DNA of 64,000 nt from an uncultured Gammaproteobacteria bacterium. Its GTDB lineage: Bacteria > Patescibacteriota > Microgenomatia > UBA10105 > UBA927. A program made the translations under genes and the position numbers. The notes beneath the pieces were generated by a model. It was not told the origin of the DNA. It did no database searches and saw only the letters and a list, made by a program, of their open reading frames with translations. The stretch's first letter is position 1. Every line of letters starts with the position of its first letter. Positions 1-64,000 of the stretch are shown one piece after another. The DNA is taken from contig CAZXHY010000002.1 in NCBI GenBank assembly GCA_964639945.1, positions 183-64,182 on the forward strand, read 5' to 3'.

Positions 1-2
1 CA

Positions 3-518: not shown

Positions 519-645
519 AGTCTATAGCTAAATCCACGTGATTTTACACATATTTTACAGAGCTTGTAAGGATCACCACAAAAAAATCCACACAGTAGCG
601 CGGTATATAAACACACAATAAACAAGAGCAAAACGCCACGTTGTC

Positions 646-2327: not shown

Positions 2328-2387
2328 AAAATGATTATCGCGCTATGTATCTGATGAGTATACCACCGTTTATACACGGAATGGATC

Positions 2388-3302: not shown

Positions 3303-3323
3303 AAAATAGTACGAACTATATGC

Positions 3324-5383: not shown

Positions 5384-5384
5384 A

Positions 5385-6431: not shown

Positions 6432-6506
6432 CTCTAGCCTATTCTACCTTCTTTGATCAATCCGTACGAAGTCCCACATCCCCTAGCCGCCCACTCGGAT
6501 CAATTA

Positions 6507-7502: not shown

Positions 7503-7505
7503 AAT

Positions 7506-8582: not shown

Positions 8583-8585
8583 AAA

Positions 8586-11424: not shown

Positions 11425-11428
11425 AATG

Positions 11429-12697
11429 TTAGTATTTCAACGTTTTCCCATCCAAACAAGCATTTCTATATAGTACCGATACCTGCTCACAAATTTGATT
11501 CTTTTCATTTTTTGTTTTTCGCTCTTCCAAAACGCCTCCTATAATCGAAAAGCATCGAAGCTGCTCAGATACATCAAGGCTTTGACATAACTGTATACCT
11601 GTTTTTACGTTTGGCTCGACAAACACTGATGATCGTATAAGTCCAGCGATACAAGCGAAATACATATCTGGCTCTGCCAGCTTACAAAATGCTTGAATTT
11701 CTTGTAAATATTCTTCTTTATGTTGATACACATAAAATATATTCTGCCCTATACCACTTACACATGTCTCTCTATACAACTCGGGGACTTGTCTACAGAC
11801 GCTAAACGATTTTTGGTTATCTTGTGCCCTACTGTACTCATACGAACCCGCACGATCATAACAATATGCATCGTATGGAGACCATAACGCGCCACACCAC
11901 ATTGGATTGTTATTAGGAATTTGTTGCGGAGCTTGCGCAAACGTCGCCGCTTCATACATTTCCATAAAAACCCCAGCTGCACATCCAATACGCCCTTCTG
12001 GAATGATCTGATCACAAAGCTTAAGTGATTCAACCAAATTGTATGCTGACACGTCCGCAACTGCATGCCCCACCTCATGGAAACACCCTCCTTGTGCTTC
12101 ACGATTTCCTGCCCAATCGACACCATCTATGCATAGCGTTGTTATTGTGCTTTTTAAATCATTTCCCATTCCATACCATGCAGAAACCGCTCCGTGCTGA
12201 CAACCGGACACGCACGCATTGGTACACTGAGGTAAAGTTATTTGCACACGACGACTTGTCATAGTACCCGCCCAGCCAATCGCATGAGCAAGATCATGAC
12301 ATTGCGTAAAATTTCTACCTGTTGTTTGTGCGTCTAACCGACGCGTAAGCGCTTGCATAAACGTCCTCGTCCCCCACTTAGGCATATCTGCCAGAAGTTT
12401 TTTTTGTGCACAAATCATAAATTTTGTTCGGTCCGCATCATTACCCCTAAAGCACTGCTCTATCGCGTGTTGCAATGCTAGATCTGCTCCGATTACTCGC
12501 CACTCAATAGGGCGTGGTCCAAATCGATATGAGAAGTTATTAAATGCTACAAACCCACTCACAATTGAAAAAAGGCATACTACACCTATTAAAAATTTCG
12601 ATGGAAAAAAATTCATTCGTTTCATTATACTCGAGTGCCACGAGGGAATATGTATGCTACTGAATAAAATCCGTCTGCACTTCATACACACAAGCAT
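11429..12697 (-). CDS. Cys/His-rich paralog family member 9 (422 aa; true start possibly at internal MKRMNFF, nt 12625)
   Basis: Carries CHDLAHAIGW, SGCQHGAVSA, CFHEVGHAVAD, CAAGVFMEMY. The TM anchor FLIGVVCLFSIVSGFVAF follows the internal Met. Confidence 0.8.
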   Translation of the reverse strand: MLVCMKCRRILFSSIHIPSWHSSIMKRMNFFPSKFLIGVVCLFSIVSGFVAFNNFSYRFGPRPIEWRVIGADLALQHAIEQCFRGNDADRTKFMICAQKKLLADMPKWGTRTFMQALTRRLDAQTTGRNFTQCHDLAHAIGWAGTMTSRRVQITLPQCTNACVSGCQHGAVSAWYGMGNDLKSTITTLCIDGVDWAGNREAQGGCFHEVGHAVADVSAYNLVESLKLCDQIIPEGRIGCAAGVFMEMYEAATFAQAPQQIPNNNPMWCGALWSPYDAYCYDRAGSYEYSRAQDNQKSFSVCRQVPELYRETCVSGIGQNIFYVYQHKEEYLQEIQAFCKLAEPDMYFACIAGLIRSSVFVEPNVKTGIQLCQSLDVSEQLRCFSIIGGVLEERKTKNEKNQICEQVSVLYRNACLDGKTLKY

Positions 12698-24402: not shown

Positions 24403-25392
24403 CTAGTTATCATGTCTATTCTCTAAAATGATCTTCGCCTGATCATAGCAAATACCTTGATTTATTTGAGATAATGATTTGCATGCGACAGATGCTAGCC
24501 TTCCCACTCCATCTTCCGCAATTACCCCCTGTATAAACCCATACAAACAGCCTGTTGTCGCACGAACGTCTTCTCTCTGACAGGAAAGAATAGCATGTTG
24601 AAAGTCGACAGTACCAGCCAGATATATAGATTCTCCTATATGCGTATAACAACGAAACCGTAAGGACACGTCAGGAAGAGCAGAACACCCCATAAACTCT
24701 TGATCTAGTGTTCCGTATGACATATGCGAATCAAGTGTAGGAACAAAAAACTCCATAAAAACTCCGTCTAGACACTGAGCCTTATATTCCTCGGTGTAAA
24801 TTTTATCGCACAATTGCAGCGCATCAACCATAGATGGTGCTCCAACCTGCGCATACACATGTCCGAAAGCATGATAACAATTTATTGTTTCCATAGTGGA
24901 AGCAGATACGTCTGAAATCCCACATATTTGCTCAATCATAGAAATGGCAGACGGATTTGCCTTAATCTTTTCTAGGATAACTCCATGGACACACCCATCC
25001 CCACACGTTCGCCCTGTGCCGCACGACCTAATCAACGTTGGAATCGATGTCTCACTGCGAGCTACTATTTCGCCGATAATGTGACCTATCGTGTGACAGG
25101 TCGAGATACTACCATTTCTTGAAAAGAACTCTGGTGATTTTGCATGAGTCTCAAGATATTGCATAACAAACGGTAGTGTATGTGGCGATACAATAGGCCA
25201 AAGTCTTTGTCGCAAACAGCCTATGTATGCTTGATTTTGTATATTTTTTGCACACACAGCGAGTGTTTGTTGCAACGATCGAACGAGCACTTTCTCGCTG
25301 AATACATTTCCAAAAAATCCGATCCCTAACCCGATACAGAACACGCAAAGCGTCGTTCCCAACTTCCGAATATTTATTATATTTCTCATCAT
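24403..25392 (-). CDS. Cys/His-rich paralog family member 11 (start taken at MMRNIINI)
   Basis: TM anchor. Carries CHTIGHIIGE, DGCVHGVILE, CYHAFGHVYAQ, CLDGVFMEFF. The ATGATGA overlap with the stop of the upstream methyltransferase was checked in sequence at 25387-25392. Confidence 0.85.
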   Translation of the reverse strand: MMRNIINIRKLGTTLCVFCIGLGIGFFGNVFSEKVLVRSLQQTLAVCAKNIQNQAYIGCLRQRLWPIVSPHTLPFVMQYLETHAKSPEFFSRNGSISTCHTIGHIIGEIVARSETSIPTLIRSCGTGRTCGDGCVHGVILEKIKANPSAISMIEQICGISDVSASTMETINCYHAFGHVYAQVGAPSMVDALQLCDKIYTEEYKAQCLDGVFMEFFVPTLDSHMSYGTLDQEFMGCSALPDVSLRFRCYTHIGESIYLAGTVDFQHAILSCQREDVRATTGCLYGFIQGVIAEDGVGRLASVACKSLSQINQGICYDQAKIILENRHDN

Positions 25393-26120
25393 TTTTGTCC
25401 AATCAAAATAAGTGATGATCCCCATGGGAACCGCACAAACCGGAGTATAAACGCTTCCACAATACACACATATATAAGGACAACGTTTATCAACGAGTGA
25501 ACCATGCGTACATCAGACCGTTCTCGGTTACGCACGACGAGCTTACCACTGAGTCTTTTTGCAACAAATATCGGAAACAATAGGAAAAACAAATAACTAC
25601 TAAAGCGTATCGAAAAACCAGCTTTTTTTACTCGCGCTTCAAGCATGGAAATAGTGTATCGCTCACGACCACCAACAGCGTGGTCATTTGGTCCATACAA
25701 AAACGGCATGGCGCAATCAGTAATGACAACATGTCCTCCCTTTTTTACAACTCTATATGCTTCCCGAAGTGCCATATCATTATCAACCCCCTTATGGTAT
25801 AGCACATCAAATAGACAAACCACATCACACGATGCTGTGCGTAAACCCGTTTTTTCTGCGTTACCATTTCTCAACGTCACACCACGAGATTTTGCTAAAG
25901 AGCGCCCCACTATACTCGGCTCTACACCGATAACCGCTCCATATCGTTGCAAAAAAGCAATCATGCCACCGGTTCCCGCACCAATATCTGCGATTACTGA
26001 GGTACTTTTTGTGAATACACCCATCCTGTCAAAAGCTTGCGCAATAAAATTCCGTCTCGACACAAACCACCAATGAACATCCTCCACTTCAAACATAGCA
26101 ATATACTCATATTTTTTCAT
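25389..26120 (-). CDS. Class I SAM-dependent methyltransferase (tandem paralog of 23649..24380)
   Basis: IADIGAGTGGMIAF; HWWFVSRRNF; ends FPWGSSLILIGQK. About 60-65% identical to 23649..24380 by eye. Confidence 0.8.
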   Translation of the reverse strand: MKKYEYIAMFEVEDVHWWFVSRRNFIAQAFDRMGVFTKSTSVIADIGAGTGGMIAFLQRYGAVIGVEPSIVGRSLAKSRGVTLRNGNAEKTGLRTASCDVVCLFDVLYHKGVDNDMALREAYRVVKKGGHVVITDCAMPFLYGPNDHAVGGRERYTISMLEARVKKAGFSIRFSSYLFFLLFPIFVAKRLSGKLVVRNRERSDVRMVHSLINVVLIYVCIVEAFILRFVRFPWGSSLILIGQK

Positions 26121-50253: not shown

Positions 50254-52119
50254 ATGCGGAAAAATTCACTGCTTTACTGGTGTTTTGGCATAGCGATAGT
50301 ACTTCGCTTACTGCTTATTCTAAATCCGGGATTTGAGGCAGATATATCATTTTGGAAATCATGGGGACTGGCTACATACGACAAAGGGATAGTCGAGGGA
50401 ATGAAGGTGACAAACAACAATTACCCCACCCCATTTGCTTACATTTTAGGCTTCATGGTCACGGTATATAGCAAATTTGCCGATCCTCATAATTTTAATG
50501 AGTTTTGGAACAACACCAACTTACTATTTCTCACCATCAGCAAACTCGTGCCTATACTTGCTGACTTCGGTATAGCAACTTTACTACTTTTTATAGGAAA
50601 AAATACGAAAAAATTAGGCTTTCCTGACATTTCTTTCAAAATTTTTACGCTAACATTCTATGAGTTGGCTGCGATAGTGTATCTACTCTCGCCTCTCGCA
50701 CTGATCGATGGCGCATGGTGGGGACAAGTGGATGCGCTAGGGGTATGTATTTTCCTTACTGCGCTAATCCTCGCTCTCAAGCGTCAACCATTTTGGGCAG
50801 GAGCCATATTCATGCTGGCCATGATGACGAAGCTACAAAACATGATTTATGGACCAGTGTTTTTTCTATTTATATGGCAAAGTCTAGGCTTTTCTGGACT
50901 TGTACGTGCCATTGGCGGTGCATTAGTCAGTTTTTTGGGATTAAATATAGAGTTTCTCTTGGCACGAAATGCAGACCGTGTATTTGCTAGCCTCACCGAA
51001 AATTATGACTATTTCCCATGGATGAGTCTAAACGCATACAACCTCTGGTGGATCACAACTGCCGGACGCGGCATGATAACTTCCGACAAATTGTCGATAA
51101 TTGGCATAGTCAATGCGAAAACAGTCGGACTACTTGTCTTCTCGTCTCTTTATCTCTTTGCGGCACTTCGACAGTTCATCGTAGGCCTCCAAAACCCCCC
51201 TTCGCAAAACACTTCGGCCGGACGAGTCAGTACGATAAACCTTCGCAACCTCATCGAGTCACTCATCATCGTAAACGCTGCTTTCTTTCTCTTCCAAACA
51301 CAATCTCACGATCGCTATGCATTCCCATTATCGGTATTTCTGCTTCTATGGGCACCATTTTATATAGCAAAACACAATAATCACATCCAACACAGGCTGA
51401 GAATTTTCTCTTGGATGTATGCGATATTTACCTTTTTTTATTTCTATAACTTACATACGGCACTCGTAGCCAACTACCCAAACAATGGTATACCTATCCT
51501 TTCTGGACTCGCTCAGCCCATGTTTACCATCCCAACGTCATTTGTGCTATTGGGGTTATTTGGAGTATTCGTCTTGCATCTCGTACGCGACTCGCATATA
51601 TCAAAATATGTAGCTGCACTTTCCTGTATATTTGTCATATCGGCTCTGAGTATGCTCAATCGTCCACTGATTAGCCGTCAACCCGTAAGCCTTACCAAGA
51701 TAGCACCATTTGTGTATGAGCAAGGATACGGACGCCGACAAGTAAACAAATCAGTAAATAGCTACCTCGGTGGGCCAAACAAATGGAACAGGTTATCTGT
51801 GCAATACGTATTTTATCCCACTGGAATAGGTACTCATGCCAATTCACGCGACGTCTATGACATAAATAAAAAATTTACAAAATTTACCACAGACTTTGGC
51901 ATAGACACGGAAGCAGGCGCCAAAGCATCGGCTATATTTGAAATTTATGGTGACGACAAACTCCTCTTTCGTTCAGAAAAAATGGGCAGATATACTATGC
52001 CCGCTCACGCTGAGGTAACAGTAAAAGGAGTGCGACATCTGAAATTAGTTACAACCGATGCGGGTGACGGTATTTTCGACGACCACACTGATTGGCTAAA
52101 TCCAACACTGTGGCCATAA
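50254..52119 (+). CDS. Polytopic GT-C-like membrane protein with a C-terminal NPCBM-like putative carbohydrate-binding domain
   Basis: N-terminus: about 12 TM helices with the acidic motif PGFEADISFW. C-terminus: GIDTEAGAKASAIFEIYGDDKLLFRS...VTTDAGDGIFDDHTDWLNPTL, matching the D-H-x-D-W ending of NPCBM/NEW2 domains. Confidence 0.6.
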   Translation: MRKNSLLYWCFGIAIVLRLLLILNPGFEADISFWKSWGLATYDKGIVEGMKVTNNNYPTPFAYILGFMVTVYSKFADPHNFNEFWNNTNLLFLTISKLVPILADFGIATLLLFIGKNTKKLGFPDISFKIFTLTFYELAAIVYLLSPLALIDGAWWGQVDALGVCIFLTALILALKRQPFWAGAIFMLAMMTKLQNMIYGPVFFLFIWQSLGFSGLVRAIGGALVSFLGLNIEFLLARNADRVFASLTENYDYFPWMSLNAYNLWWITTAGRGMITSDKLSIIGIVNAKTVGLLVFSSLYLFAALRQFIVGLQNPPSQNTSAGRVSTINLRNLIESLIIVNAAFFLFQTQSHDRYAFPLSVFLLLWAPFYIAKHNNHIQHRLRIFSWMYAIFTFFYFYNLHTALVANYPNNGIPILSGLAQPMFTIPTSFVLLGLFGVFVLHLVRDSHISKYVAALSCIFVISALSMLNRPLISRQPVSLTKIAPFVYEQGYGRRQVNKSVNSYLGGPNKWNRLSVQYVFYPTGIGTHANSRDVYDINKKFTKFTTDFGIDTEAGAKASAIFEIYGDDKLLFRSEKMGRYTMPAHAEVTVKGVRHLKLVTTDAGDGIFDDHTDWLNPTLWP

Positions 52120-54440
52120 TGCATATGAAACATATAGAAAAATATCTTGGTATTGCGCTCCTTATATTTGCGTTAGGGTTTAACTTCTGGACGTATCGAT
52201 CCGAGCCTTCTGCGAGGTTAGATCCCAACGACAACACCTTCCAATTTGCCCTCGTCGACCGAACCAACCAAATTTGGGACTATGCAAACACGCATTGCAA
52301 AAGCATTTTTCCAACAAACCTCTTCTGCAAAATTTCTCTGCTAACCGATCATTGGGTACCCAACTGGGCAGAGGGATATAACCTTCCCTATTACTACTCT
52401 CATATTCCACAAATTGCCATCGTCGCCTCATACAGACTTTTCCAAACTATTTTTCAAACACAACTATTACTATTTAGTTTCTATCACCTCAGCATATTTA
52501 CGCTGCTGTGCATATTTCCATTATCGCTATTTCTAGCATTACGAATTATTGGATTATCTTGGATAGCAAGTGGCATAGGGGCCACAATCGCCTCTCATCT
52601 TTCTACCGATGGTTTGTATGGACTAGATCCTGCGTCATTTTTATGGCGAGGATTCGGCCTCTCCAGCCAGCTTTTTGCCATGATATGGTTTCCACTGGCT
52701 ATCGCTACAGCTTGGAGATGCTTAAAAACACCTTCTGGTGATGTAAATGCCAAAGCTGTACTCGTGCCAATTTTGTTTCTAGCCGCAACAACAGCGGGTC
52801 ATTTGGGTATAGGCATCATCGCATTTATAACGATTGGCATGCTTTATCTGAGTCCACTACTGTTATCTTTCCTCACCCACTCCATCGACAAGACTATTCT
52901 AGATACCCTAAAAACCAACATGGTAAAACTGATCATAATGTTTACCGGAGTCGGATTACTTCTGGGGTACTGGATTGTTCCCATACTCAAGGACAGCAAC
53001 TATCACAACATATCTGTATGGGATCCAATATGGAAATTCGATTCATATGGATACCGCGAGGTGTTAAAAAACCTCTTTAATGGTGACATATTTGATTTTG
53101 GGCGCTTCCCAACGCTCTCCATACTCGTAGTAGTTGGAATATTTGTCGCCCTCCATAGTCCGCTATCAGGATTCTATCCATTCGCCTTTCTTTTGATCTT
53201 CTGGGTATTACTCTACTTTGGACGAACTACATGGGGTGGACTCATAGATATCATCCCAGGCATGAAAGAATTTCATATCTCTCGTTTCATCGTAGGAGTA
53301 CATATGAGTGGATTATTCCTCATTCCCCTTGTAGCAGAGTGGATAATCACAAAAACGCACAAAACAACCCGAGTCGCTGTCGGAATACTATGTAGCGTGA
53401 TCATCGTATTGGCGGTATACCCACAAACCCTCCGATACGCCAAACATAATGATTTTCTCATCGACCGAGCCAACACCAACTACAAACCCATAGCGTCAGA
53501 CAGTGACAATTTGATCCAGACACTCAAAAATAAACTCGTCACAAACTCTGGGCGTGTCTATTTTGGACGGGGTGGAAACTGGGGCAAGAACTTCCGAGTC
53601 GCAGAAACCCCCTACTATCTCTACGCATCGACTTTTGGCATCCCTACTGTACTTTGGCTACCTCAAACATGGTCACCAAACTCTGATACAGAACAATTTT
53701 TTAGCGATAACCGTGAGAGCGACTACACCCTCTACAACGTGCGATATGTCGTAACACCACCAGATCTAGGCAAAGCCGAAATCCAACCCTTCTGGAAGCC
53801 TCTGGCGGCAGGACATACATGGAAATTATATGAGGTGGAGACAGATGGATATATCACTAGTGGCATTCGTCCGGTAATCGTCAGCGTTGACAAAGAAACA
53901 TATATAAATCTAGTCCATCTTTGGATAACCTCTGACGCTCCTAAAATAGGATTATACCCTGAGCTTACTTTTGACAAAAACTATCCTAAAAAAACTGGTT
54001 TTCCTAATTTTCGAATGATCGACAACGTAACCTATACAACTCCTTCTGGAGGAACACAAAATCTTTTTGCAGATCAACCAATCTACGGAGCTTCACAAAA
54101 GTGCAACAAGATAGATAATGTAATCATACTTTCTCAAAAATCTACATCTGACATGATATTTGAGGCAAAAGTAAAGGCGGAACGAGATTGTCCAGATTCG
54201 CTTGTTGTATTACGTCAGACGTATCACCCATCATGGCATGCGACTATTGATGGAAAACCTGCAAAAACAATAAGTGTATTCCCTTTTTACACAGCTGTTG
54301 TTGTAGAAACTGCAGGAAATCACACCATTCAATTCGCCTATAAACCTTCAGTGATCAAACAGACACTGCTCATTCTCGCTTTTATATCTATAGGACTTCT
54401 TTTTGGATACCTCTTTTATAAAAAAGACTCGTCACAATAG
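52092..54440 (+). CDS. YfhO-family polytopic membrane protein (782 aa; start possibly at nt 52119, overlapping the upstream stop as TAATG)
   Basis: The C-terminal motif YHPSWHATIDGKPAKTISVF...FAYKP, followed by a final TM helix, matches the YfhO C-terminus. The same motif occurs in 38506..40623. Confidence 0.65.
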   Translation: MAKSNTVAIMHMKHIEKYLGIALLIFALGFNFWTYRSEPSARLDPNDNTFQFALVDRTNQIWDYANTHCKSIFPTNLFCKISLLTDHWVPNWAEGYNLPYYYSHIPQIAIVASYRLFQTIFQTQLLLFSFYHLSIFTLLCIFPLSLFLALRIIGLSWIASGIGATIASHLSTDGLYGLDPASFLWRGFGLSSQLFAMIWFPLAIATAWRCLKTPSGDVNAKAVLVPILFLAATTAGHLGIGIIAFITIGMLYLSPLLLSFLTHSIDKTILDTLKTNMVKLIIMFTGVGLLLGYWIVPILKDSNYHNISVWDPIWKFDSYGYREVLKNLFNGDIFDFGRFPTLSILVVVGIFVALHSPLSGFYPFAFLLIFWVLLYFGRTTWGGLIDIIPGMKEFHISRFIVGVHMSGLFLIPLVAEWIITKTHKTTRVAVGILCSVIIVLAVYPQTLRYAKHNDFLIDRANTNYKPIASDSDNLIQTLKNKLVTNSGRVYFGRGGNWGKNFRVAETPYYLYASTFGIPTVLWLPQTWSPNSDTEQFFSDNRESDYTLYNVRYVVTPPDLGKAEIQPFWKPLAAGHTWKLYEVETDGYITSGIRPVIVSVDKETYINLVHLWITSDAPKIGLYPELTFDKNYPKKTGFPNFRMIDNVTYTTPSGGTQNLFADQPIYGASQKCNKIDNVIILSQKSTSDMIFEAKVKAERDCPDSLVVLRQTYHPSWHATIDGKPAKTISVFPFYTAVVVETAGNHTIQFAYKPSVIKQTLLILAFISIGLLFGYLFYKKDSSQ

Positions 54441-54447
54441 CCCAAAA

Positions 54448-57400
54448 CTAATGAATCAAGACGAAATACTTCTCTTGATCTACGTATTTAAAAATACCTT
54501 CCCATGTCTCGTAATCAAGTGGCTGAGATGATGTTTGAAACGCATTTAACCCGTTTAGGTTCGCCATCCAATCATTTATTGGGTCTTTTATACCAATTTC
54601 AGAATCGATCCCTTGTGTAATCAATTGATCTTCTAATTGATCTTTCAAACTCACAGACCACAACATCTCAGGTGGAATGAGAATTTGCACCGCTTGACCA
54701 GTCTCGTTAGCACCCACAAGCCCCATATACATAAGCTTATTTGTTCCACCATATTGATTTGACCTCATAAAGTTTTTTGCCATAGACTCAGTGAGATTTG
54801 TATTTCCTTTATAGGAATACCCCACAAACGACGTGGTGTAATCGAACGGCCACAAGATACGCATAGCGTTCTCGTATTCACTTATTCCCTGATTTGGCGT
54901 TGTCATAAACCGCACCTCACCATTTTCTTCAACTAGCCACGGTGTTACCACTTGGCTATGTATCTGAGTTAGGAAATCAGGTTGCGCAACTCCATTTAGT
55001 TTGTTTAATTGGGCATCAGGAATATTGGTAGCGAGATATTGTATATACACAGGGTCATTTAATGATTTCCCCATTCGCGCGTAGGCAGCTAGTACTGCAT
55101 CCCAATCAGAAAAATCAACAATTGCGCCCTGTTCGATAGGATCTATAATTATCGCAGGAAGAATCTCTCCATCTTTCTCCAAATGAAGAAATGCAATTAA
55201 CTCTGGATCAGACGTAAAATACAGCAATCGTCCGTCCTCATCTTTACGAATTTCCCACTCAACATCACCTACTACAAACGAATAATGCATATTGTAATCC
55301 CATTTTCCTTGTAGCTGTTTACATGCTTCATCTCCTTGCATCAAGGCAGTGAGCGCTTCTTTGGCCATTTGTGGATTCACATCACCGCGATCTATATCAT
55401 GAAATGCAGCATATATTACTGGTTTACATGCCTCAGAGACATATTCATTCATAAGCTCTTTACCTAACACCGCAATCCATCGAGTATTCCAGTCACCCAA
55501 TACTAATTGAGATATCGCCACGTACAACAATGCCCTATCGACCCGAATACATTTTGGAAATTTACACCCTTCAGGACCCGCCCCCTTCTTCGACATCACA
55601 AACCGAACACCCGTGCGACGCGTTATTTCCTTTTGTATTCCTTCTCGAAAACTCACGTTATCTCGAATCTCCCTAGCAAGCGCATTGCGCGACATAAAAA
55701 TAGGTGCGCATGTAGGATCCCCACCCATTGCGTAGACCTTTTTAACAAATGGATTGAAAGAAAAACATCCATCATTTTTTATACTTTGAATTACAATCTG
55801 TATACCTGTGTGATTAGCCTCATTTTTTGTAGCTGAGGAAATAACTGGACGATTTCTTTGTAAGAGAATCTCAAATATATTCTCATCCGACGCATATCGA
55901 CTCGTCCACAAGTCTACCACCTCGTGGTATACGCTTTTCCAGATAAAAGAACTTAAGGTTTGTGCAAATTGACAGATACCACTCACACGATTTTGACCAC
56001 TAAGACTTTGGGCGTAAACTTTGGTAACAAAACCAACACTTCCTCCATCACACACTGCGCCTGTAACCCTATCTATAACCGATTTCGCCACTTCCTCTAA
56101 TTTATTTTCGGGTATTTCCTGCTCTCCTAGAGACTGTAGCAAGCTGTGTTCTTCTACATCCTGTGGTTTAAAAAACTCTGGATGACTCACGCGAATATCA
56201 GAAAGCTTACCCACAACGTGGACTCCCAATTGATCATTAGGAGTCAGATCCACAACGGTTGCATCAGAAAATCCATGCACACTCATGTAATACATAAGCA
56301 TCTGTATCCCCTGAGTTGTACCTCCGACGGTCCATATATTGTTTGTTCCATGAATAATTTTAGCGCTCGTCATAGGCTCAACGAGCCCAGATTTTTGCAG
56401 AAGCACGTTATGCGCATTGGTTTCTTTAGTCCAGAGCAACCTGCCGTCGTTCGTAATAATTCCAATAAATTGTTGACCTGAAACCCCTGCATACCGAACC
56501 TCAGTCACAGCAGCGTTCATGTAGGATAACTTTTGTTTTAGATCTAACGTCGTGTATGAAATTTCAGGTGTGGGTAAACCAAAACTATAGACCCCAGCTT
56601 TCAAATCGTCATTAAGGGTTTTACGATCAATAACAAACCGTGTTCCTTCATTTCTAACAAACACTAAACGACTTGCTGATACGGCACCTACTAACAAATC
56701 CTCGTCACCAATATCTAAATGTTGGATAAAAGTATCACCTACCAAATAGACAAAATCGTCCGAAGTTCCTGCTAGTTCGCCGAGCGTTGTGTTGGTTATC
56801 TTTTGGTTTGATCCTATACCCAATTCCAGCCGGACAATGGTTCCTGCTTCAAATTCCAAACGTATGAGCCGAGTAGCCAACTCTTGGGTATTCGTAAACG
56901 ATTCATCAGGAATGCTAACAGTGAGGCCTTCTCGAGAATTAAACAGATAAATATTCCCACGTATTTCATGCTGAGGTTGAGTAGATGTAAATTTTATTGG
57001 GTAGGAGAGGAATACCTGTGGAATTTGGGCGTACGGATTGACAATATCGTCTAACTTCCCCGCTGCTACATCAGCAAGTGTCAAATTTTCTTGTCGTTCA
57101 CGATCTCGGAAAGAGAATCTCCAATTAGGATAAGCTCCCTCTTGGAGAAGCACGCGAACAGCATAATCTGCCAGCGTGCGTCGCATTTTTGGTGTCATCC
57201 GCCCGTTATCCACTCTATCAATACCAAGCTCGCCCCTATCCACTATAACGGCTATATAATCACTCTCATTACCTCCTATAGAATTCACGATCGTTTGATG
57301 AGCCGTATTGAATGTCCTACCCAAAATAACGCCTTGGGTAGAATCATGCATATTGATTACTGCTCGAAATGTAGAAATAGGATCCTGCAGGAAATCTCGA

Positions 57401-60400
57401 GACGCAGCTCCCAGAATCACCCGCAGCAACTCACCCTGTGTCGTTCCATCTGCATTGATAAGATGATAGAGTGTCACAAATGCTTCCGCATTATCAGCAA
57501 AAATTCTATTTGACAGAGCTCTGGAGATTTCAGGTCTTTGTGCAACAAGATCAGTAATTTTTGGGTGATTTAACAAAGCAAATACATTTTCTGTTAAGTC
57601 TTCATGCTGAAGCATGAAGGATATAAGCGCCTGTTTATTATCATCATTCAACCACTCTGGTTTGTCTGTTTTTGCAATGTAGCTTTTTAAAATACTAACA
57701 ACTCTACCTCTGTTGATAAGTCCGGATTTAATAACTTGTGCAATTTGAGTACGGGCCATAACTGGTATATCAGAGTGGAAGATAACGGAAACAAGATCAG
57801 TTCCGAGATATGAGCCCAAAACCTCTTCAATAAGCGAAGGTTTTTGATGGTGTGTTCTGATAACCCTCTCTGCTACGGTTTGTCTTTTTTCCGATTCGAC
57901 CGTTTCGTCAAGTAAAAATGCGCGCACAGAACGAACAGGTTTAGACGAAATGGAAAAACTTTTAAAGTCGCTCTGGCTCATATCCTGCCAAAGGACAATA
58001 GCTGCACCCATACGGTTATCAGCATTATTGGTCGCATCAGACACAAAGGAACCTAAAATGTCATAAATGATAAGATAAAATTTTGGAATATATTTTCGGG
58101 ATAACACATTAATCATTTCATGCTCCAACTCCTCACTTTTTATACGTATGAAAATTTCATTAAGGAGCTCTCGCATGCCCTGCTGGCTAATATTATGAAC
58201 CCCAACAGATTCAAAATATTTCATCGTTTCAACAGGAAACTGACGAATATGTTGCTTCATTAGTTCAATAACTCGTACATCTGGATTCTTTATATTTGAC
58301 CAAAGTGATTGCACCAATGAACCATTTTCTACGTTAGTGATCCTAAGGGACGCAATTTTTTGAATAAATTGAAACGAAGCATCGTTTGGATTTTTGTAAA
58401 AATCTAAAAGCAAAATAAGCGCGTTGGTTCTAACTTCGACATCCACCTGATCATTAAACACAAGATCTGTATAGAGCTCTACAACATCATTATTAAGATG
58501 CTTTTCCCAAGAATTCATAAGTCGTAGTCGTATCGTTTCATTTACTTTTTTATTTTCTAAAATTTGTCGAGCGATAGTAACGGCTTGAGGATCACTCGGA
58601 TCCATAGACCAAACTTGTTCATAAAAAGCTGTCGTAGGACCCAAGGTTTCAAAAAAATCATCAGGTATAGTCTCTTCTCCTGCCAGTGGTTTTACTTCTG
58701 ATCTATTTTTAAGCAATAAGGGCCAAAGTGCTATCGGTTGATCTTTCAAAAAAGCATAAAATACACGGTCAATTTCTGGCCATTGTGCACTGTAGGCATC
58801 AAAGTATGAACGTGCATATTGCTTTGCATCGGGAAGATTATTTATTGCAAGGACAAAAGGTACAAACTCCGGCTGGAAATTTATATAATTCTCAAAATCT
58901 AATCGCAACACTGTGTCAGTAAAACGGCTCAGTGTGTGTATTGGCGGCAAAAAATCTGGCCTCAGAGACAGGAGGAATAGCTCTTGCTGATCGTCAGCTT
59001 GGTTCAGTATCATATTCCAAAACGCCTTTTCTCCTTCTGGAACGAGACCTGATGTAACAAACGCAGGGTCATGAAGCACTTCGTAATATATTGATTTTTT
59101 CCATTCATCCGGATGTTGCGCGTAATACACAAAAGTCGGATTCTTCTCATTAAACATTGGGAAAAATAACGTCGCAAAAAACGCAGAAGTGAAGTTCTGA
59201 CCGTTGTACGTGGGGTGAGCATTTATGTCTTTAAAAACTTGCGTTACGTTTAAAATAGTTTGTATACGAACCCCACCTACTAACGCGTCGCTTACGAATT
59301 GATTCAACCCTTTATCCTCTGACGATGCTGCCTTTAATAACTCATGAATCCTGTACAAATCAAATTTTGTTATACGTTCACCACCTCTAACTCGTTGAAG
59401 TATTTGTTCCCAAGGAAGAAGCTTGAAATGTTCTTCTTCTATACTGAATTGAAAATGCTCTAAGTTGACTTCCTCTTGCCTATACAAAAATCCCTCCTCA
59501 TGCGATTCGTCTGTGAGAAGCATATACACTTCTGCCTCAACTGGATAAATTTTGTAGAATTCCCAAAGCTTTTGTATATCCCCAACAGGAGAAGATGTGT
59601 CACGAATAAACCCTTGTCGTGCGGCCACTTTTTTAGCAAAAGGCCCCACTAATGCCATAAATGCATCAAGATCTTTTTTTAATTCGGGATTCTGGATAAA
59701 AATTTCATTATAAAATGAAGCGGTTATGCTAACTTGCGGTCGACCCTCACGAATATTTCTAAAAAATTGCTCAATCACATATTCTCGTTCGATCTGACTT
59801 CCGTTATATAATGCGCCGTAGTCAAATGCTTGATCGTAGACTTTATCTGGTACTCCATATCCTGGGGTTCCATCAGGTCGATCATAAAATTCTGGAGTTA
59901 TACTGAATGTCTTTGGAGCTAATGCGAAAACTTTCGCATTCTTCTCTAAAGGTTTCGTCGAACCATAGACAACATAGTGCTGGGCTTTATCTAGCAACCC
60001 TAAATACTCATAAAAATTATTGTATGCTCGCAACGATCCCCCAGTTATATATACCTCACTCAAAACCGAAATTGATTCACTATTTTCTAAATCAGCTAAA
60101 ACCTCGGGATAATAATATTGCATCAATGCCTTTCGGAGCGCCCCATCTACCACAGGTTCGGATGGTGCCAGAAGTCGCTGTAAATTCAACAGATCTTGAT
60201 TTGTAGGATCAGTTTCCAGCTTAAGCGCCACCTGATCTCTTGTTGTGTCTATCCATATTTCTGGTATCCCTTTGTATGCAATGGTGTTTGGTCCGATAAT
60301 ACCTTTTGGACCCTTTGTTGGCATAAGAACAAATTTTGGCATATTTGCCTCAGAAATACCAAGAATTTTACCAATGATTATTATCACTGCTTTCTGACGC

Positions 60401-63400
60401 ACACCACTATCCCCCGTCAAAATAATCGTCTGTGGACGCGACTGCAAAATGGCAGTAACTGCGCGTAAAAATGGCTCACCAGTCTCTGTTAATTGCGGCG
60501 TTATCGATACCTTGGTTTGATCTATAACTACACCACTCGACTCTTCTGAAGAATTCGCAGGATTCAATGAAAAATCAGTCGGCACTATCCCCAATCCCCC
60601 TTTATTCATCAAGAAATTCAAAATCCGATCTTGTAGAGATTTAGGCAACCAATCAAAGAATCTTCGCCATGCTACCTGCCACCAAGACGACCCGCCTATA
60701 GTTGATGGGGCTATAGTTGCATTTCTTGACGGCAACCATGCCCCAATTTGTGGCAAGATGTTAGGGTCGCTCATACCTCTATATAATAAAGACTGAATTG
60801 CTTGTAACTGAGCCACGGTCATTATCGTTTTCACATCTGGCAACACACCCAACGCCCAAGATTGTGCCTCAAGCTGAGAGAGAGCTCCAGTGGTATGCGT
60901 ATTTTCATCTAATATTTTTTGAATTTCTTCTACCATCCATGGATTTCGACGCAGTACCTCAGTAAGCCGAGATGAGTCTTGTATGTGTTCCGTGAATGAT
61001 TTGTTCGCTTGCTTTTGAGCATAGTAATCATTAAAAACTTGCGACCACGCATCAACTAACTGCTGTCTACGTGTGGATTGCTCCGCTGTCCGCTGCGCAA
61101 CCTCTGCTTGAAACCAATTATCGTTGGCACCTAAGGTGGTGCCAATTGTGTTTACAAAACGTTCAGTAAGTAGGGATAAATCCACTGCGTTCCCTTGCAC
61201 GCGGTTCATCAACAATGTAGCCAACAATCGCTCTACAAATTCCTCTGACTCCTTGCTCTCATATTCGTTTACAATCTCCTGCGCCATCTTTGTAACATCG
61301 GTATTTGGCTTGAGATAACTACGTAAAACTCCTGCAACATCAGTAACCGTCGGAGCACTTGCTTGATGAAGCGCCATAAGAATGTGTATAGCAATTATCT
61401 CTTCTATCCCAGTTTTGGTGCCCGTAGCATCGTTGGTGAGAGCACCATCCCCACCCAAGTCTGTTCGATATCGAAACTCAGCATCAACCGTCAAATCCTG
61501 TGATATTGCATAATTACCAAGTGACACAAGTGTTTTTGCTAACGCAAAATCCTCGTTTCGAGCAAAATGAGGTACGCCTCCTGCCAACCTCATACCAGCA
61601 ACTGTCGTAACAATTTGTGGCGACCCAATAGTAAGATTTCCCCCTGCGCGATTCGTAAAAATATTTTGTAGCATGTCATACACGGGATACAAATTTCGAT
61701 GAATAAGAAAATCATGAAAATTTGATGCAATAGCTTTAGAGCTTTCCGCAAAATGTTCGCTCATACCTAGGATAAGCGTCTGAAGTGAGGGTGAAGCATC
61801 ATATTGTGAAATAATGCCACTGATATACGATGTTGGAACCAACACGTCTGCATCCATCTGCGCAACTATACCTCTGTCCCCCCTTCCATTTTGAGCAAAT
61901 CTTCTCGCTGCCTCTCGAGATCCCACATCCCGCAACATTCCAAGATTTACACGCCTTTTACCATCTCTGCCATCCACATCATCAGGAACCCCTCGATAAT
62001 CTATCGTGTGTATGACTAATCCTTTGGCAAAAACCTTCTCGAGCACACTTCGTTGATATGACGTAAGACCTCTACCAGTTTGGGCAACTATACGTTTTTC
62101 AAAATCGTCAAACGCTATATGCCCCGCAAGATATTCAGCAAGTACCATGGTTTGTGCATTATCTTTTTCTATATCTGTACCTTTTGCCGACTCACCATGA
62201 TTGAGCAATAGCAACAATTCAAACCGAGAAGCATCAGCGCTTTGATTGGCAAAGCTTTCGAGGAACCGATAAATAGCATTGGTATCATATTCCTTCGCCA
62301 CAGGCACGACTACAGATATGCGAGCTTCTGGAGCCATAGGTTTTGAAATAATGCGCCTATTTGATAACGTATACGTCGTAATACGGTCTTTGATTCGCAT
62401 ACGAATTGATGGCCCTTTCTGAAGAGTTCCTGTGCTTTGATTCGAAGTGCCATTGTCAGAAAAGTTGAGTGGTACTATCCCCAACCCACCCCTATTCATC
62501 AAGAAGTTCAAAATCCTATCTTGCAAAGATTTAGGCAACCAATCAAAAAATCCTCGCCATACCCGCTGCCACCATGATGGCGCGGTATTAGTTTTTTGAT
62601 TGTCAGCAAGCAATTCAATTTTATGCCGTATCACCTCTGCTTTGTATCGATTCCCATCAGGAGTCACAAAATCCACAGTCCCGTCTGAAAGAAAATCTAA
62701 ACCTCCAGGAACTTTAAACTGATTCGGAACTTGATCTAGAAGCAATTCGTCTGCAGCAGAATCATCAACTTCGATAAGATCCTTAACTTCTTTTGGAAGT
62801 CGTATTTCTAACAATACTGGTGTTTTATCAAAGCCATTACTATCTGCGACACTTCTTACTGAATTTAACTCTACTGCATATCGCCCTGCAGATACTTCGG
62901 GCTCCTGCGAAAGATACATATACTCATCACCATCGGTTCGACCCCCAACAGTGTTTGCCTTTACAACACCTTCTACTGTTCCATGCCACAATGACAATGT
63001 CTTCGCCTGATCGAGCGCAATCTGCTCAGCCTCTTGAGAAATCTCTGCATTCTTTTTCCCTTTAATATCAACTTTACGTACTATATTTGGTTTACTCACG
63101 CCAACCACACGCCACCCATTTCCTTGTATACTTTGCACAGTTGTTTGAGGCTGAGAAATGGCAGGATCCAACACCCCAACAAGACTTTTGACCGTTTCTG
63201 TCCTATACGCAACACCTTCTATATCGATCAAATATATTTGATCTCCATCATCAGCCCAGTTGTCATATTTCATTCCGTCTTTTGTTATGAGACTTCCCCA
63301 TATCGCTTGGTCTGCAAAATCAGGATCTGCCTGTTTAGCATTTATATTAAACGTCGGAAAAAGCCTGCGCATCGGCTCATTTAATGCCTCAAGAGAAATA

Positions 63401-63924
63401 CGAGAATCAGGTTTTTTCAGTGATGCTGTTTGTTGTAAGAATGGCATTATTGCACCTATACTGTACTCCCCATTATCCATTTCGTAGTAAAACCATGTGG
63501 TATCGGGATGAAAAAATCCTTTTTGAGTGAGAAGCACCATAAGCCTCAACTGATTGATAGCTTCCTCCTCTAATTTAAAGTGGAAGGTGTTTGTTTTTTC
63601 TTGGTACACACGATCGCCTGACAATCTAAACACACGCCCTCGATCAGAATGTATTTCTATACCACTCTGCGCATACGCATCTCGCTCTGCCTTAGTTAGC
63701 TTTGGAATAGATACGCCGTATAATACCAGAGCATTTTCCTCTAAATTGCTCGACTGACCTCCATTATTGTTTAGATTCATCAATCTCGCCAAATTTGGGT
63801 CGACAATACGAGAAACCTGCTGATCTCCCCACCATTTTTTAGCTATACTCCAAGCTTTTTGTATAGGTGCAATCTGAATAAAACTCGTACTGGCTATCAT
63901 TCCAACAATAAACAAGGCTAGCAA
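54448..63924 (-). CDS. Giant (3158 aa) N-terminally membrane-anchored protein with an internal duplicated segment and an embedded GT-A-like motif pair
   Basis: A single 9.5-kb ORF with no stop and an N-terminal TM (MLALFIVGMIASTSFI). The duplicated block reads SWWQ(R/V)(V/A)WR(G/R)FFDWLPKSLQDRILNFLMN(R/K)GGLGIVP. It also carries RISVVVPVAKEYD ... QMDADVLVP. Confidence 0.8.
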   Translation of the reverse strand: MLALFIVGMIASTSFIQIAPIQKAWSIAKKWWGDQQVSRIVDPNLARLMNLNNNGGQSSNLEENALVLYGVSIPKLTKAERDAYAQSGIEIHSDRGRVFRLSGDRVYQEKTNTFHFKLEEEAINQLRLMVLLTQKGFFHPDTTWFYYEMDNGEYSIGAIMPFLQQTASLKKPDSRISLEALNEPMRRLFPTFNINAKQADPDFADQAIWGSLITKDGMKYDNWADDGDQIYLIDIEGVAYRTETVKSLVGVLDPAISQPQTTVQSIQGNGWRVVGVSKPNIVRKVDIKGKKNAEISQEAEQIALDQAKTLSLWHGTVEGVVKANTVGGRTDGDEYMYLSQEPEVSAGRYAVELNSVRSVADSNGFDKTPVLLEIRLPKEVKDLIEVDDSAADELLLDQVPNQFKVPGGLDFLSDGTVDFVTPDGNRYKAEVIRHKIELLADNQKTNTAPSWWQRVWRGFFDWLPKSLQDRILNFLMNRGGLGIVPLNFSDNGTSNQSTGTLQKGPSIRMRIKDRITTYTLSNRRIISKPMAPEARISVVVPVAKEYDTNAIYRFLESFANQSADASRFELLLLLNHGESAKGTDIEKDNAQTMVLAEYLAGHIAFDDFEKRIVAQTGRGLTSYQRSVLEKVFAKGLVIHTIDYRGVPDDVDGRDGKRRVNLGMLRDVGSREAARRFAQNGRGDRGIVAQMDADVLVPTSYISGIISQYDASPSLQTLILGMSEHFAESSKAIASNFHDFLIHRNLYPVYDMLQNIFTNRAGGNLTIGSPQIVTTVAGMRLAGGVPHFARNEDFALAKTLVSLGNYAISQDLTVDAEFRYRTDLGGDGALTNDATGTKTGIEEIIAIHILMALHQASAPTVTDVAGVLRSYLKPNTDVTKMAQEIVNEYESKESEEFVERLLATLLMNRVQGNAVDLSLLTERFVNTIGTTLGANDNWFQAEVAQRTAEQSTRRQQLVDAWSQVFNDYYAQKQANKSFTEHIQDSSRLTEVLRRNPWMVEEIQKILDENTHTTGALSQLEAQSWALGVLPDVKTIMTVAQLQAIQSLLYRGMSDPNILPQIGAWLPSRNATIAPSTIGGSSWWQVAWRRFFDWLPKSLQDRILNFLMNKGGLGIVPTDFSLNPANSSEESSGVVIDQTKVSITPQLTETGEPFLRAVTAILQSRPQTIILTGDSGVRQKAVIIIIGKILGISEANMPKFVLMPTKGPKGIIGPNTIAYKGIPEIWIDTTRDQVALKLETDPTNQDLLNLQRLLAPSEPVVDGALRKALMQYYYPEVLADLENSESISVLSEVYITGGSLRAYNNFYEYLGLLDKAQHYVVYGSTKPLEKNAKVFALAPKTFSITPEFYDRPDGTPGYGVPDKVYDQAFDYGALYNGSQIEREYVIEQFFRNIREGRPQVSITASFYNEIFIQNPELKKDLDAFMALVGPFAKKVAARQGFIRDTSSPVGDIQKLWEFYKIYPVEAEVYMLLTDESHEEGFLYRQEEVNLEHFQFSIEEEHFKLLPWEQILQRVRGGERITKFDLYRIHELLKAASSEDKGLNQFVSDALVGGVRIQTILNVTQVFKDINAHPTYNGQNFTSAFFATLFFPMFNEKNPTFVYYAQHPDEWKKSIYYEVLHDPAFVTSGLVPEGEKAFWNMILNQADDQQELFLLSLRPDFLPPIHTLSRFTDTVLRLDFENYINFQPEFVPFVLAINNLPDAKQYARSYFDAYSAQWPEIDRVFYAFLKDQPIALWPLLLKNRSEVKPLAGEETIPDDFFETLGPTTAFYEQVWSMDPSDPQAVTIARQILENKKVNETIRLRLMNSWEKHLNNDVVELYTDLVFNDQVDVEVRTNALILLLDFYKNPNDASFQFIQKIASLRITNVENGSLVQSLWSNIKNPDVRVIELMKQHIRQFPVETMKYFESVGVHNISQQGMRELLNEIFIRIKSEELEHEMINVLSRKYIPKFYLIIYDILGSFVSDATNNADNRMGAAIVLWQDMSQSDFKSFSISSKPVRSVRAFLLDETVESEKRQTVAERVIRTHHQKPSLIEEVLGSYLGTDLVSVIFHSDIPVMARTQIAQVIKSGLINRGRVVSILKSYIAKTDKPEWLNDDNKQALISFMLQHEDLTENVFALLNHPKITDLVAQRPEISRALSNRIFADNAEAFVTLYHLINADGTTQGELLRVILGAASRDFLQDPISTFRAVINMHDSTQGVILGRTFNTAHQTIVNSIGGNESDYIAVIVDRGELGIDRVDNGRMTPKMRRTLADYAVRVLLQEGAYPNWRFSFRDRERQENLTLADVAAGKLDDIVNPYAQIPQVFLSYPIKFTSTQPQHEIRGNIYLFNSREGLTVSIPDESFTNTQELATRLIRLEFEAGTIVRLELGIGSNQKITNTTLGELAGTSDDFVYLVGDTFIQHLDIGDEDLLVGAVSASRLVFVRNEGTRFVIDRKTLNDDLKAGVYSFGLPTPEISYTTLDLKQKLSYMNAAVTEVRYAGVSGQQFIGIITNDGRLLWTKETNAHNVLLQKSGLVEPMTSAKIIHGTNNIWTVGGTTQGIQMLMYYMSVHGFSDATVVDLTPNDQLGVHVVGKLSDIRVSHPEFFKPQDVEEHSLLQSLGEQEIPENKLEEVAKSVIDRVTGAVCDGGSVGFVTKVYAQSLSGQNRVSGICQFAQTLSSFIWKSVYHEVVDLWTSRYASDENIFEILLQRNRPVISSATKNEANHTGIQIVIQSIKNDGCFSFNPFVKKVYAMGGDPTCAPIFMSRNALAREIRDNVSFREGIQKEITRRTGVRFVMSKKGAGPEGCKFPKCIRVDRALLYVAISQLVLGDWNTRWIAVLGKELMNEYVSEACKPVIYAAFHDIDRGDVNPQMAKEALTALMQGDEACKQLQGKWDYNMHYSFVVGDVEWEIRKDEDGRLLYFTSDPELIAFLHLEKDGEILPAIIIDPIEQGAIVDFSDWDAVLAAYARMGKSLNDPVYIQYLATNIPDAQLNKLNGVAQPDFLTQIHSQVVTPWLVEENGEVRFMTTPNQGISEYENAMRILWPFDYTTSFVGYSYKGNTNLTESMAKNFMRSNQYGGTNKLMYMGLVGANETGQAVQILIPPEMLWSVSLKDQLEDQLITQGIDSEIGIKDPINDWMANLNGLNAFQTSSQPLDYETWEGIFKYVDQEKYFVLIH
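60581..60690. repeat. Copy A of a ~110-nt intragenic direct repeat (about 85% identical to copy B)
   Basis: ggcactatccccaatccccc...ttcatcaagaaattcaaaatccgatcttgtagagatttaggcaaccaatcaaagaatcttcgccat, compared with 62471..62580. Confidence 0.85.
62471..62580. repeat. Copy B of the intragenic direct repeat
   Basis: ggtactatccccaacccacc...ttcatcaagaagttcaaaatcctatcttgcaaagatttaggcaaccaatcaaaaaatcctcgccat. Confidence 0.85.
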
Positions 63925-64000
63925 TCCTGTTTTTAAACCCTTTCCTAATTGCGTTAACCATCGCCATAGCGCTTCAAATGACCAACCACGAGATTTTAAT

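Follow-up and report, generated by a model that had tools for sequence, protein, structure and literature searches.

A giant open reading frame beside a glycan gene island probably belongs to a mosaic megaprotein family of Woesebacteria-like bacteria

The 64,000-nt stretch of contig CAZXHY010000002.1 analysed here (the window) ends in a giant open reading frame (ORF) on the minus strand. A preliminary description of the DNA had reported this frame as a single uninterrupted 9.5-kb ORF, which was borne out (54448-63924). Counted from a TTG codon, the ORF listing gives it 3158 amino acids (aa), and the translation has no low-complexity character. The length of 3158 aa and the 'N-terminal' position of a membrane anchor, both taken from that description, are edge artefacts and lower bounds, because the frame runs on without a stop as far as the end of the window at 64000 and its visible length is 3,183 codons. 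The extension was read codon by codon from the last 76 bases of the window and from a translation of 54451-63999. Between 63924 and the window edge there are 25 codons, none of them an ATG, GTG, TTG or stop, which leaves the TTG at 63924 or a codon outside the window as the start. The ORF finder took the first start codon past the window edge, and did likewise at the edge of L009, one of the related loci described below. By itself, a stretch of 25 open codons carries no significance (chance estimate ~0.3 at the GC content of the giant ORF). Shine-Dalgarno support for the TTG start was considered and dropped, since most genes in the window have no clear Shine-Dalgarno sequence and the feature is uninformative here. 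We think it fairly likely that the giant gene continues upstream of the window edge, because the extension resembles W-rich junction motifs inside the protein, because the closest relative has the homologous junction at an internal position (residues 4,076-4,108 of 7,662) and because every relative on a long contig has at least 6,783 aa. The ORF is thus probably the C-terminal part (at least 3,183 codons) of a larger gene from a family of mosaic megaproteins of ~7,000 residues or more. For annotation practice, a giant ORF that touches a window or contig edge should be given neither a length nor an N-terminus.

To the usual family collections the giant protein is almost invisible. The whole protein had no match in Pfam (0 at E<=1), NCBIfam, PADLOC or PHROGs, and phmmer against the PDB gave nothing. 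With the whole protein, its C-terminal 600 aa or an alignment of its module M3 as query, a word-indexed homologue search came back empty. These negatives carry little weight, because two relatives present in that collection, P0001 and P0002, went unreturned, although P0001 is 78-92% identical to the giant protein over hundreds of residues. Exact-product look-ups gave no match for the giant protein or its YfhO-like neighbour, and a metagenome scan with two patterns, which were too specific, found nothing. A scan of GTDB species representatives yielded one locus, from a Candidatus Woesebacteria metagenome-assembled genome (Gw_Eff_bin_148), in which the matching ORF fills its contig. This closest relative, P0001 (MBP6993646.1, 'GNAT family N-acetyltransferase'), has 7,662 aa on the 23,033-nt contig JAGOLU010000003.1, in keeping with the earlier view that the giant gene comes from a CPR-type (candidate phyla radiation) organism. 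A metagenome scan seeded with a three-sequence M3 alignment gave two further loci. In L008 (ERZ761592 NODE-21), one frame has 0 stops across all 20,819 nt and encodes more than 6,939 aa (L008p). In L009 (Ga0082335_1000353), an ORF of at least 6,783 aa (L009p) is open at the locus edge. P0002 is a related fragment of 1,357 aa. The family is defined from these five sequences: the giant protein, P0001, P0002, L008p and L009p. Since no phage or plasmid match (tblastn) and no IMG/VR match was obtained with M3, a phage or plasmid origin is unsupported. Literature searches turned up no description of an M3/Cys-loop megaprotein family. The comparison suggests a small, undescribed family of mosaic megaproteins in Woesebacteria-like CPR bacteria. 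Its apparent marks are M3, the 'punctuation' by W-rich junctions and C...V[Y/H]A...C loops, almost no unpaired cysteine (Cys) and a length of ~7,000 aa.

Judged from these alignments, the giant ORF is real and not a product of chance or assembly, because blocks of it align collinearly and in the same frame with three giant ORFs that come independently from other assemblies. An assembly chimera, or a pseudogene in decay that was read as one ORF, is hardly credible. The assembly is of metagenome type, and contigs of the same species in the ENA break just before the giant gene. Against this, the 9.5 kb are free of stops at 41% GC, the codon usage matches that of neighbouring genes, the frame is collinear with L008p over 1,200 aa and with P0001 in M3 and M7, and three independent assemblies hold ORFs of the same family of at least 20 kb. 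The species of the window recurs, at 99.7-100% identity, in assemblies of ENA and Logan, whose contigs end before the giant gene; no recovered ENA or Logan contig reaches it. DNA from beyond the window edge was not returned by any of the collections searched. One of them, L001, is of the window's species (99.73% identity over 17 kb). Its amino-acid differences gather at the start of the YfhO-like gene (16862-17017 in L001, 52125-52280 in the window), where the contig ends. This divergence, together with the contig ends, hints at strain heterogeneity around the giant gene.

Modules were mapped by local phmmer and BLASTP, with residues numbered from the TTG (Table 1). The hydrophobic segment named as an anchor in the preliminary description is indeed the sole one, as no second transmembrane (TM)-like stretch occurs in the giant protein beyond aa 1-22; its N-terminal position is set by the window edge. 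Matches to P0001 are limited to aa 22-52, 1120-1403 and 2705-3043, and aa 1399-2605 match L008p, which carries ~950 extra residues between M3 and M4-5, including another Cys-loop. The homology blocks stop sharply at J2, at around aa 1400 and at both Cys-loops, which is the pattern expected if cassettes swap at short conserved elements. This suggests that recombination at the punctuation elements may lie behind cassette exchange. Repeat prediction, proposed earlier as a check, gave 0 tandem arrays in the giant ORF (Tandem Repeats Finder) and, by chunked self-BLASTP, only the J1/J2 junction pair of about 40 aa (31-40 aa). As far as these comparisons go, the giant protein is a chain of unrelated globular modules and not a repeat or coiled-coil adhesin.

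Table 1. Features of the giant gene, listed from the window edge towards the stop codon.
Feature	Window position	Residues (aa)	Strand	Description
Open 5' extension	63925..63999		-	25 in-frame codons upstream of TTG, LKSRGWSFEALWRWLTQLGKGLKTG; no stop, no start codon; frame open to edge
TM-like segment	63859..63924	1-22	-	LLALFIVGMIASTSFIQIAPIQ; mean Kyte-Doolittle hydropathy up to 2.1
W-rich junction KKWWGDQQV	63769..63861	22-52	-	KKWWGDQQVSRIVDPNLARLMNLN; 74% identical to P0001 aa 4076-4108 (internal)
Module M1	62581..63768	53-448	-	No homologue, family or fold match
J1	62471..62593	449-490	-	SWWQRVWRGFFDWLPKSLQDRILNFLMNRGGLGIVP; 5' copy of 123-nt direct repeat; S/N/T-rich linker with three sequons next
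GT-A (GT2-like) domain	61435..62367	520-830	-	DxD = D691-A-D693
GT helical-bundle extension	60805..61434	831-1040	-	Homologous to C-terminal half of ~550-aa stand-alone proteins
J2	60581..60703	1079-1120	-	3' copy of 123-nt direct repeat
Module M3	59716..60525	1134-1403	-	Alpha/beta domain common to whole family
Block M4-5	56110..59715	1404-2605	-	Collinear with L008p aa 4585-5774, 53% identity, 1393 bits; no family match
Cys-loop 1	55972..56052	2625-2651	-	CDGGSVGFVTKVYAQSLSGQNRVSGIC; Cys pair, recurring family motif
Cys-loop 2	55708..55767	2720-2739	-	CFSFNPFVKKVYAMGGDPTC; Cys pair, recurring family motif
C-terminal module M7	54451..55707	2740-3158	-	Two more Cys pairs; 73-87% identical to P0001 C-terminus
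Stop codon	54448..54450		-	7 nt from end of convergent YfhO-like ORF (52092-54440, +)

M3 (270 aa) is the module that defines the family. Its alignments contain the invariant motifs ETG, GxSG, GPNTIAYK and EVxIxGGS. It is 78% identical to its counterpart in P0001 (core 92%) and 36-41% identical to those in P0002, L008p and L009p, with E-values from 1e-55 to 1e-146 against the four proteins. The preliminary description had also proposed structure prediction by domain, which succeeded for M3 and the glycosyltransferase (GT) module and failed for M7. AlphaFold2 (AF2), run on concatenated M3 and M7, predicted M3 as a three-layer alpha/beta domain with a confidence score (pLDDT) of ~80; M7 remained below 50 and its model is unusable. 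Foldseek on the M3 and M7 model found nothing significant, and PDB profile searches with M3 and M4-5 gave no match. M3 was considered as an SGNH hydrolase, since GDSG follows strand 1 and GPN could represent block III. This was rejected, since the Asp is Asn in L008p, no His is conserved and no structural match was found. A kinase-like fold for M1 was likewise dropped, being a by-eye motif without search support.

The one module of the giant protein that could be assigned lies between J1 and J2. These 123-nt repeats are 81% identical in DNA and 87% in protein and follow the pattern SWWQ..W...FFDWLPKSLQDRILNFLMN.GGLGIVP. They are spaced 1890 nt (630 codons) apart, hence in frame, and enclose the GT cassette. 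The possibility that J1 and J2 are TM helices that put the GT in the cytoplasm was dropped, given a mean hydropathy of -0.15 and many charges. An S/N/T-rich linker directly follows both copies. The linkers carry four N-x-S/T sequons (NFS, NGT and NQS after J1; NSS after J2) at ORF aa 487-497 and 1124-1126 (window ~62434-62466 and 60547-60555), and they adjoin an island rich in PMT_2- and YfhO-type transferases. Sequon density in the giant protein as a whole is not above expectation (22 vs ~20).

An exhaustive phmmer search with residues 441-1640 gave 155 hits, mostly to the N-termini of ~550-aa proteins. Alignment of 45 stand-alone homologues with residues 499-1040 revealed the motifs VVVPxYxE...Q, FE.I.VVNN, N.G.AR..G, DAD and GGVP....GED, and the giant protein keeps all invariant GT columns. 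Its D691 and D693 align with the D193/D195 columns, which are nearly invariant in 46 homologues, and E293/D294 (GED) are kept as well. The giant protein itself falls below any Pfam GT2 model (PF00535 gathering score). The homologues P0005, P0006, P0008, P0011 and P0017 pass it, so that membership of the giant protein is transitive. The GT family profile matches the PDB GT2 enzymes 6p61, TarS and RmlT. An AF2 model made with the homologue alignment (pLDDT 78.6; predicted template modelling score, pTM, 0.80) shows an alpha/beta domain and, after it, a helical bundle in which one helix has ~58 residues. Foldseek against the PDB returned only GT-A enzymes at probability 1.0 and E ~1e-8, namely hyaluronan synthases, AvpGT, RmlT, TarP, TarS and 6p61. 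From the predicted structure, we regard the assignment of aa 520-830 as a GT-A (GT2) fold glycosyltransferase domain as settled, and the retained residues suggest that the module is likely to have glycosyltransferase activity. One stand-alone homologue adjoins SLT and PMT_2 genes, and the module is also embedded in the large proteins P0003, P0010, P0067, P0120 and P0143. P0010 (4,267 aa; L010 1-22804, GCA_964640155.1, CAZXEQ010000003.1) has a signal-peptide-like N-terminus and, by eye, four copies of a kinase-like repeat DHHTGN...DFEAF. Directly upstream of it, another giant gene encodes at least 6,580 aa, among which are the domains AprA_N, Methyltransf_36 and HD_4.

The giant protein had been described as compositionally distinct and rich in L, E and K. 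Its GC content is 0.411 compared to 0.420 in the 44 other ORFs of the window, and the codon-frequency correlation is 0.83. Neither Leu (9.4% vs 10.4% in the others) nor Lys (4.7% vs 4.6%) is raised. The raised residues are E, D, N and Q only, giving a net charge of -86; L+E+K averages 20% along the protein and reaches 35% in one segment, and the chain is not notably coiled-coil. The compositional oddity is instead Cys depletion together with acidity. Cys makes up 0.25% of the giant protein compared to 1.8% in the other window ORFs. Only 8 Cys occur in 3,183 residues, and the first 2,649 are free of Cys (the count starts at the window edge; ORF numbering is obtained by subtracting 25). The probability of this Cys-free run is ~2e-21 at the neighbours' 1.8% and ~1e-7 even at 0.6%. 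In the same numbering, all 8 Cys are paired: 2650/2676, 2745/2764, 2812/2817 and 2858/2893. The pattern extends to all five family proteins, in which Cys amounts to 0.10-0.29% and nearly all Cys lie in pairs 18-26 residues apart. The Cys-loops follow the consensus C-x(7-12)-V-[Y/H]-A-x(4-12)-C, with 2 in the giant protein and 13 in the relatives; throughout the family they are placed where modules meet, often just upstream of M3.

The preliminary description had put the protein forward as a surface protein for cell-cell attachment. A giant adhesin, with the enzyme-like domain incidental or degenerate, would suit the size, the single membrane anchor, the acidic and Cys-poor composition and the CPR origin, and the ~70% of the chain that has no fold match (M1, M4-5, M6 and M7) could hide binding domains. 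We nevertheless consider this very unlikely. The chain has neither tandem nor internal domain repeats and no adhesin Pfam domain. It has no sortase signal (no LPx[TSA]G anywhere), and its C-terminus is a conserved globular module; a type I secretion signal is not excludable by sequence. M3 is an alpha/beta three-layer domain rather than a beta-sandwich, the sole assignable module is of a catalytic type with its GT-A catalytic residues conserved, and the relatives are enriched in enzymes. The surface part of the earlier proposal is plausible, given the depleted and paired Cys and the LCP and SGNH domains of relatives; the attachment role did not hold up.

The enzymes of the relatives extend the repertoire. 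P0001 has a GNAT domain, a multi-TM block and a weak alpha/beta-hydrolase hit below the Pfam cutoff (20.4 vs 26.3 bits). L008p combines a TM segment, an LCP (LytR-CpsA-Psr) domain, a GDSL/SGNH domain, M3, M4-5 and a methyltransferase-like domain, and P0002 a TM segment, LCP, a Cys-loop and M3. L009p has six Cys-loops and an intein with an NYN insert. In this last protein (L009 176-20353, protein aa 236-555), an Intein_splicing Hint domain (E = 5e-14) holds an NYN ribonuclease-like insert in the usual place of the homing endonuclease. In L008p, L009p and P0002, Cys-loops lie immediately upstream of M3, and a WWQ/WWK motif is also present upstream of it. As assigned from sequence, the family repertoire (GT-A, LCP, SGNH, GNAT, methyltransferase and hydrolase) is of the kind seen in the synthesis and tailoring of cell-envelope glycopolymers.

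An outer-face location is argued because Cys is depleted and strictly paired, because the chain is strongly acidic and because M3 lies downstream of a TM segment and LCP in P0002 and L008p with no further TM segment. The catalytic domains of LCP proteins are extracytoplasmic. These features make a surface location of the giant protein plausible. We propose, with a probability of roughly 0.55, that the giant protein is a membrane-anchored, surface-tethered, cassette-swapping array of glycan-modifying enzymes. A single TM segment would tether the chain to the membrane, with its acidic, almost Cys-free bulk presumably on the outer face, where disulfide hairpins formed by the Cys pairs at module boundaries may stabilise it. 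The tethered array would modify glycans or cell-wall polymers. Recombination at the punctuation elements would add, remove and swap cassettes, with the result that related strains would differ in their enzyme sets. The target of the array could be the cell's own envelope or a partner or competitor cell, and we lean very slightly towards the latter.

Several points weigh against this proposal. GT-A enzymes require nucleotide sugars as donors, and these are lacking outside the cell; the GNAT (acetyl-CoA) and methyltransferase-like (S-adenosylmethionine) modules of the relatives pose the same donor problem. The disulfides are deduced from Cys pairing alone. The label 'enzyme array' combines one domain here with domains in relatives, ~70% of the giant protein having no fold match, and M3 has no significant PDB match (best Foldseek E = 0.12, capsule multienzyme 8a0m). 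Recombination is read from sharp homology boundaries, and a family of only five members makes claims on architecture thin. No functional linkage is implied to the glycan island, with which the giant gene is convergent.

The donor problem would disappear if the TM-anchored bulk lay in the cytoplasm as a scaffold, on which GT-A, GNAT and methyltransferase modules build or decorate the cell's own wall polymer or glycoprotein together with the adjacent 54-kb island. TarS, TarP and RmlT, the nearest structural neighbours of the GT-A domain with its intact DxD, are cytoplasmic decorators of wall teichoic acid. The stand-alone GT homologues leave no room for a signal peptide and lie near envelope genes (SLT, PMT_2), the glycan island provides a context, and 8a0m, the top if non-significant match of M3, is a precedent for a multi-enzyme glycopolymer machine. 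We judge this arrangement to be possible but unlikely. It hardly explains 2,649 Cys-free residues next to neighbours with 1.8% Cys, or why the Cys elsewhere are strictly paired. In P0002 and L008p, M3 follows TM and LCP (and SGNH in L008p), both enzymes of types that work outside the cytoplasm, with no TM segment between. The mosaic architecture is unusual for housekeeping biosynthesis, and the gene, being convergent, is not co-transcribed with the island.

Since no TM segment separates the cofactor-dependent enzymes from the markers of an outside location, a one-sided outer topology is paradoxical. Possible ways out are that the enzymes work in the cytoplasm of another cell, that the chain is cytoplasmic and its Cys pattern has another cause, or that the chain crosses the membrane at a place that was not recognised. 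The first would make the protein an exported multi-effector toxin or a protein for manipulating a host, secreted by an episymbiont or displayed on its surface, with which GT-A cassettes (GNAT and methyltransferase-like ones in the relatives) are delivered into the cytoplasm of its partner, perhaps after cleavage at the C...VYA...C loops. In function it would parallel MARTX toxins, large glycosylating toxins and lymphostatin. This would resolve the paradox of 'cytoplasmic' enzymes in a Cys-depleted chain punctuated by disulfide loops, and the mosaic cassettes and GT-flanking repeats resemble polymorphic conflict proteins. Other large proteins contain the GT module as well, and P0010 among them starts with a signal-peptide-like sequence. 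In the accessible text of two reports, gigantic multi-enzyme proteins found in predatory bacteria of ultra-small size are proposed to act as effectors (10.1101/2023.11.21.568195; 10.1101/2025.01.14.632903). We regard a toxin as rather improbable. The visible protein contains no translocation, autoprotease (C80/C58), RHS, RTX or PT-HINT domain by Pfam, NCBIfam and PADLOC. Its C-terminus, shared with P0001, is the conserved part rather than the variable one, and the downstream gene encodes a convergent YfhO-like membrane protein that is not immunity-like. The structural neighbours of the GT are wall-polymer enzymes, not toxin glycosyltransferases of the GT44 or GT88 type, and the LCP and SGNH modules of the relatives are cell-wall enzymes of an ordinary kind. 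That the chain is cleaved at the loops is pure conjecture.

A broader and still more speculative idea, which we hold to be doubtful, is that CPR megaproteins of at least 7,000 aa are surface-launched, cassette-swapping effector arrays that deliver GT-A, GNAT and methyltransferase-like enzymes into a partner, with the C...V[Y/H]A...C hairpins as processing or release sites. If true, such arrays would be the CPR counterpart of MARTX and the large glycosylating toxins, and would give a handle on host manipulation by ultra-small bacteria. Whatever their role, a gene of at least 20 kb takes up ~2% of a CPR genome, which is ~1 Mb in size. M3, the Cys-loop punctuation, the extreme Cys depletion and the in-frame, repeat-flanked cassette are testable features that could explain evolution by cassette exchange. 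The family is nearly wholly unannotated, its sole database name being that of P0001. It frames the question whether CPR cells display or deliver glycan-modifying enzymes, and the apparent conflict of 'cytoplasmic' enzyme types with 'extracellular' sequence signatures is itself a sharp question for experiment.

Elsewhere in the window, glycan genes predominate. They encode two DegT aminotransferases, several GT2 enzymes, membrane transferases of PMT_2 type (four) and YfhO-like (two), a GT87-like/NPCBM fusion, a C-methyltransferase, a hexapeptide acyltransferase and a dTDP-sugar epimerase-like protein. The fusion (50254-52119, +, 621 aa) is unusual in joining a weak GT87-like membrane glycosyltransferase region (E = 6e-4) to a strong C-terminal match to the carbohydrate-binding domain NPCBM/NEW2 (E = 6e-32). 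The giant gene had been said to terminate this island, which is true of its position only. Being convergent with the island's last gene, it adjoins the island rather than being a member of its operon and is not co-transcribed with it. The reported convergence with a YfhO gene and the 7-nt gap were confirmed; the YfhO label has weak support, as the neighbour has no Pfam hit at 1e-3; over its final 80 residues it matches the Pfam-positive YfhO protein encoded in the window (E = 4e-7). No terminator-like hairpin was found between the two genes, and no tRNA occurs in the window. The part of the island at 1035-12697 and 24403-25467 is largely unannotated; seven large minus-strand ORFs there have no Pfam hit at E<=1e-5, and the ORFs at 3324-4376, 11429-12697 and 24403-25467 have 5.4-5.7% Cys. 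GC skew of the plus strand is -0.08 to -0.24 in every 2-kb bin, irrespective of gene strand, and AT skew drops from positive to slightly negative beyond ~46 kb. The skew pattern points to a window that sits wholly on one replichore, or to a mutational bias specific to the strand.

Among known proteins, P0001 is most similar to the giant protein, sharing the KKWWGDQQV junction (74%), M3, a Cys-loop, M7 (73-87%) and the same Cys pairing and depletion. In contrast, ~75% of either protein is without a counterpart in the other. P0001 has the GNAT domain, the weak hydrolase hit and the multi-TM block, while the GT-A cassette, M1 and M4-5 are absent from it; the name given to it in the database stands for a single domain out of 7,662 residues. 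L008p, L009p and P0002 share M3 and the upstream Cys-loops and WWQ/WWK motifs, with M4-5 shared by L008p (53%, 1,200 aa). They differ in carrying LCP, SGNH and methyltransferase-like modules and the intein with NYN, and none of them has the GT-A cassette or M7. The GT-A fold and DxD in residues 520-830 are shared with TarS, TarP, RmlT, hyaluronan synthase, AvpGT and 6p61, although sequence identity is 9-15%. Where those enzymes have trimerisation or TM domains, the GT of the giant protein carries a helical bundle of 210 aa as its extension; this GT is also free of Cys and forms part of a megaprotein.

Repeat-built giant adhesins of the SiiE, LapA and Ebh types consist of tens of tandem Ig-like or other repeats. 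The giant protein resembles them in size, acidity, surface tethering and low Cys, and differs in having neither tandem nor internal domain repeats. MARTX, the large clostridial glycosylating toxins and lymphostatin/LifA are huge single chains with GT-A and/or swappable effector cassettes that act in the cytoplasm of another cell. In contrast, a CPD/C80, C58, RTX or GT44-type domain or a translocation region was not detected in the giant protein, which was not searched directly against these toxins. Giant proteins of Omnitrophota are, in the accessible text of two reports, mostly unannotated, TM-bearing, multi-enzyme proteins that are read as predation machinery (10.1101/2023.11.21.568195; 10.1101/2025.01.14.632903). 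As far as that text describes them, these and other giants of ultra-small bacteria resemble the present family in their very large ORFs, TM segments and mix of polysaccharide-related enzymes, methylases and peptidases. They differ, in the part of the first report that was available, in having numerous TM regions, SecA/DEAD-like domains and 30,000-85,000 aa (10.1101/2023.11.21.568195). The visible 3,183 residues of the giant protein have one TM segment and no SecA/DEAD hit, and an N-terminal part may lie beyond the window. We found no sequence relationship between Omnitrophota giants and the Woesebacteria-like family, which belongs to another lineage, and M3, W-junctions, Cys-loops and Cys depletion are not among the features named in the accessible text on those giants. 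Together, these comparisons suggest that the family is a variation on the known theme of giant proteins in ultra-small bacteria.

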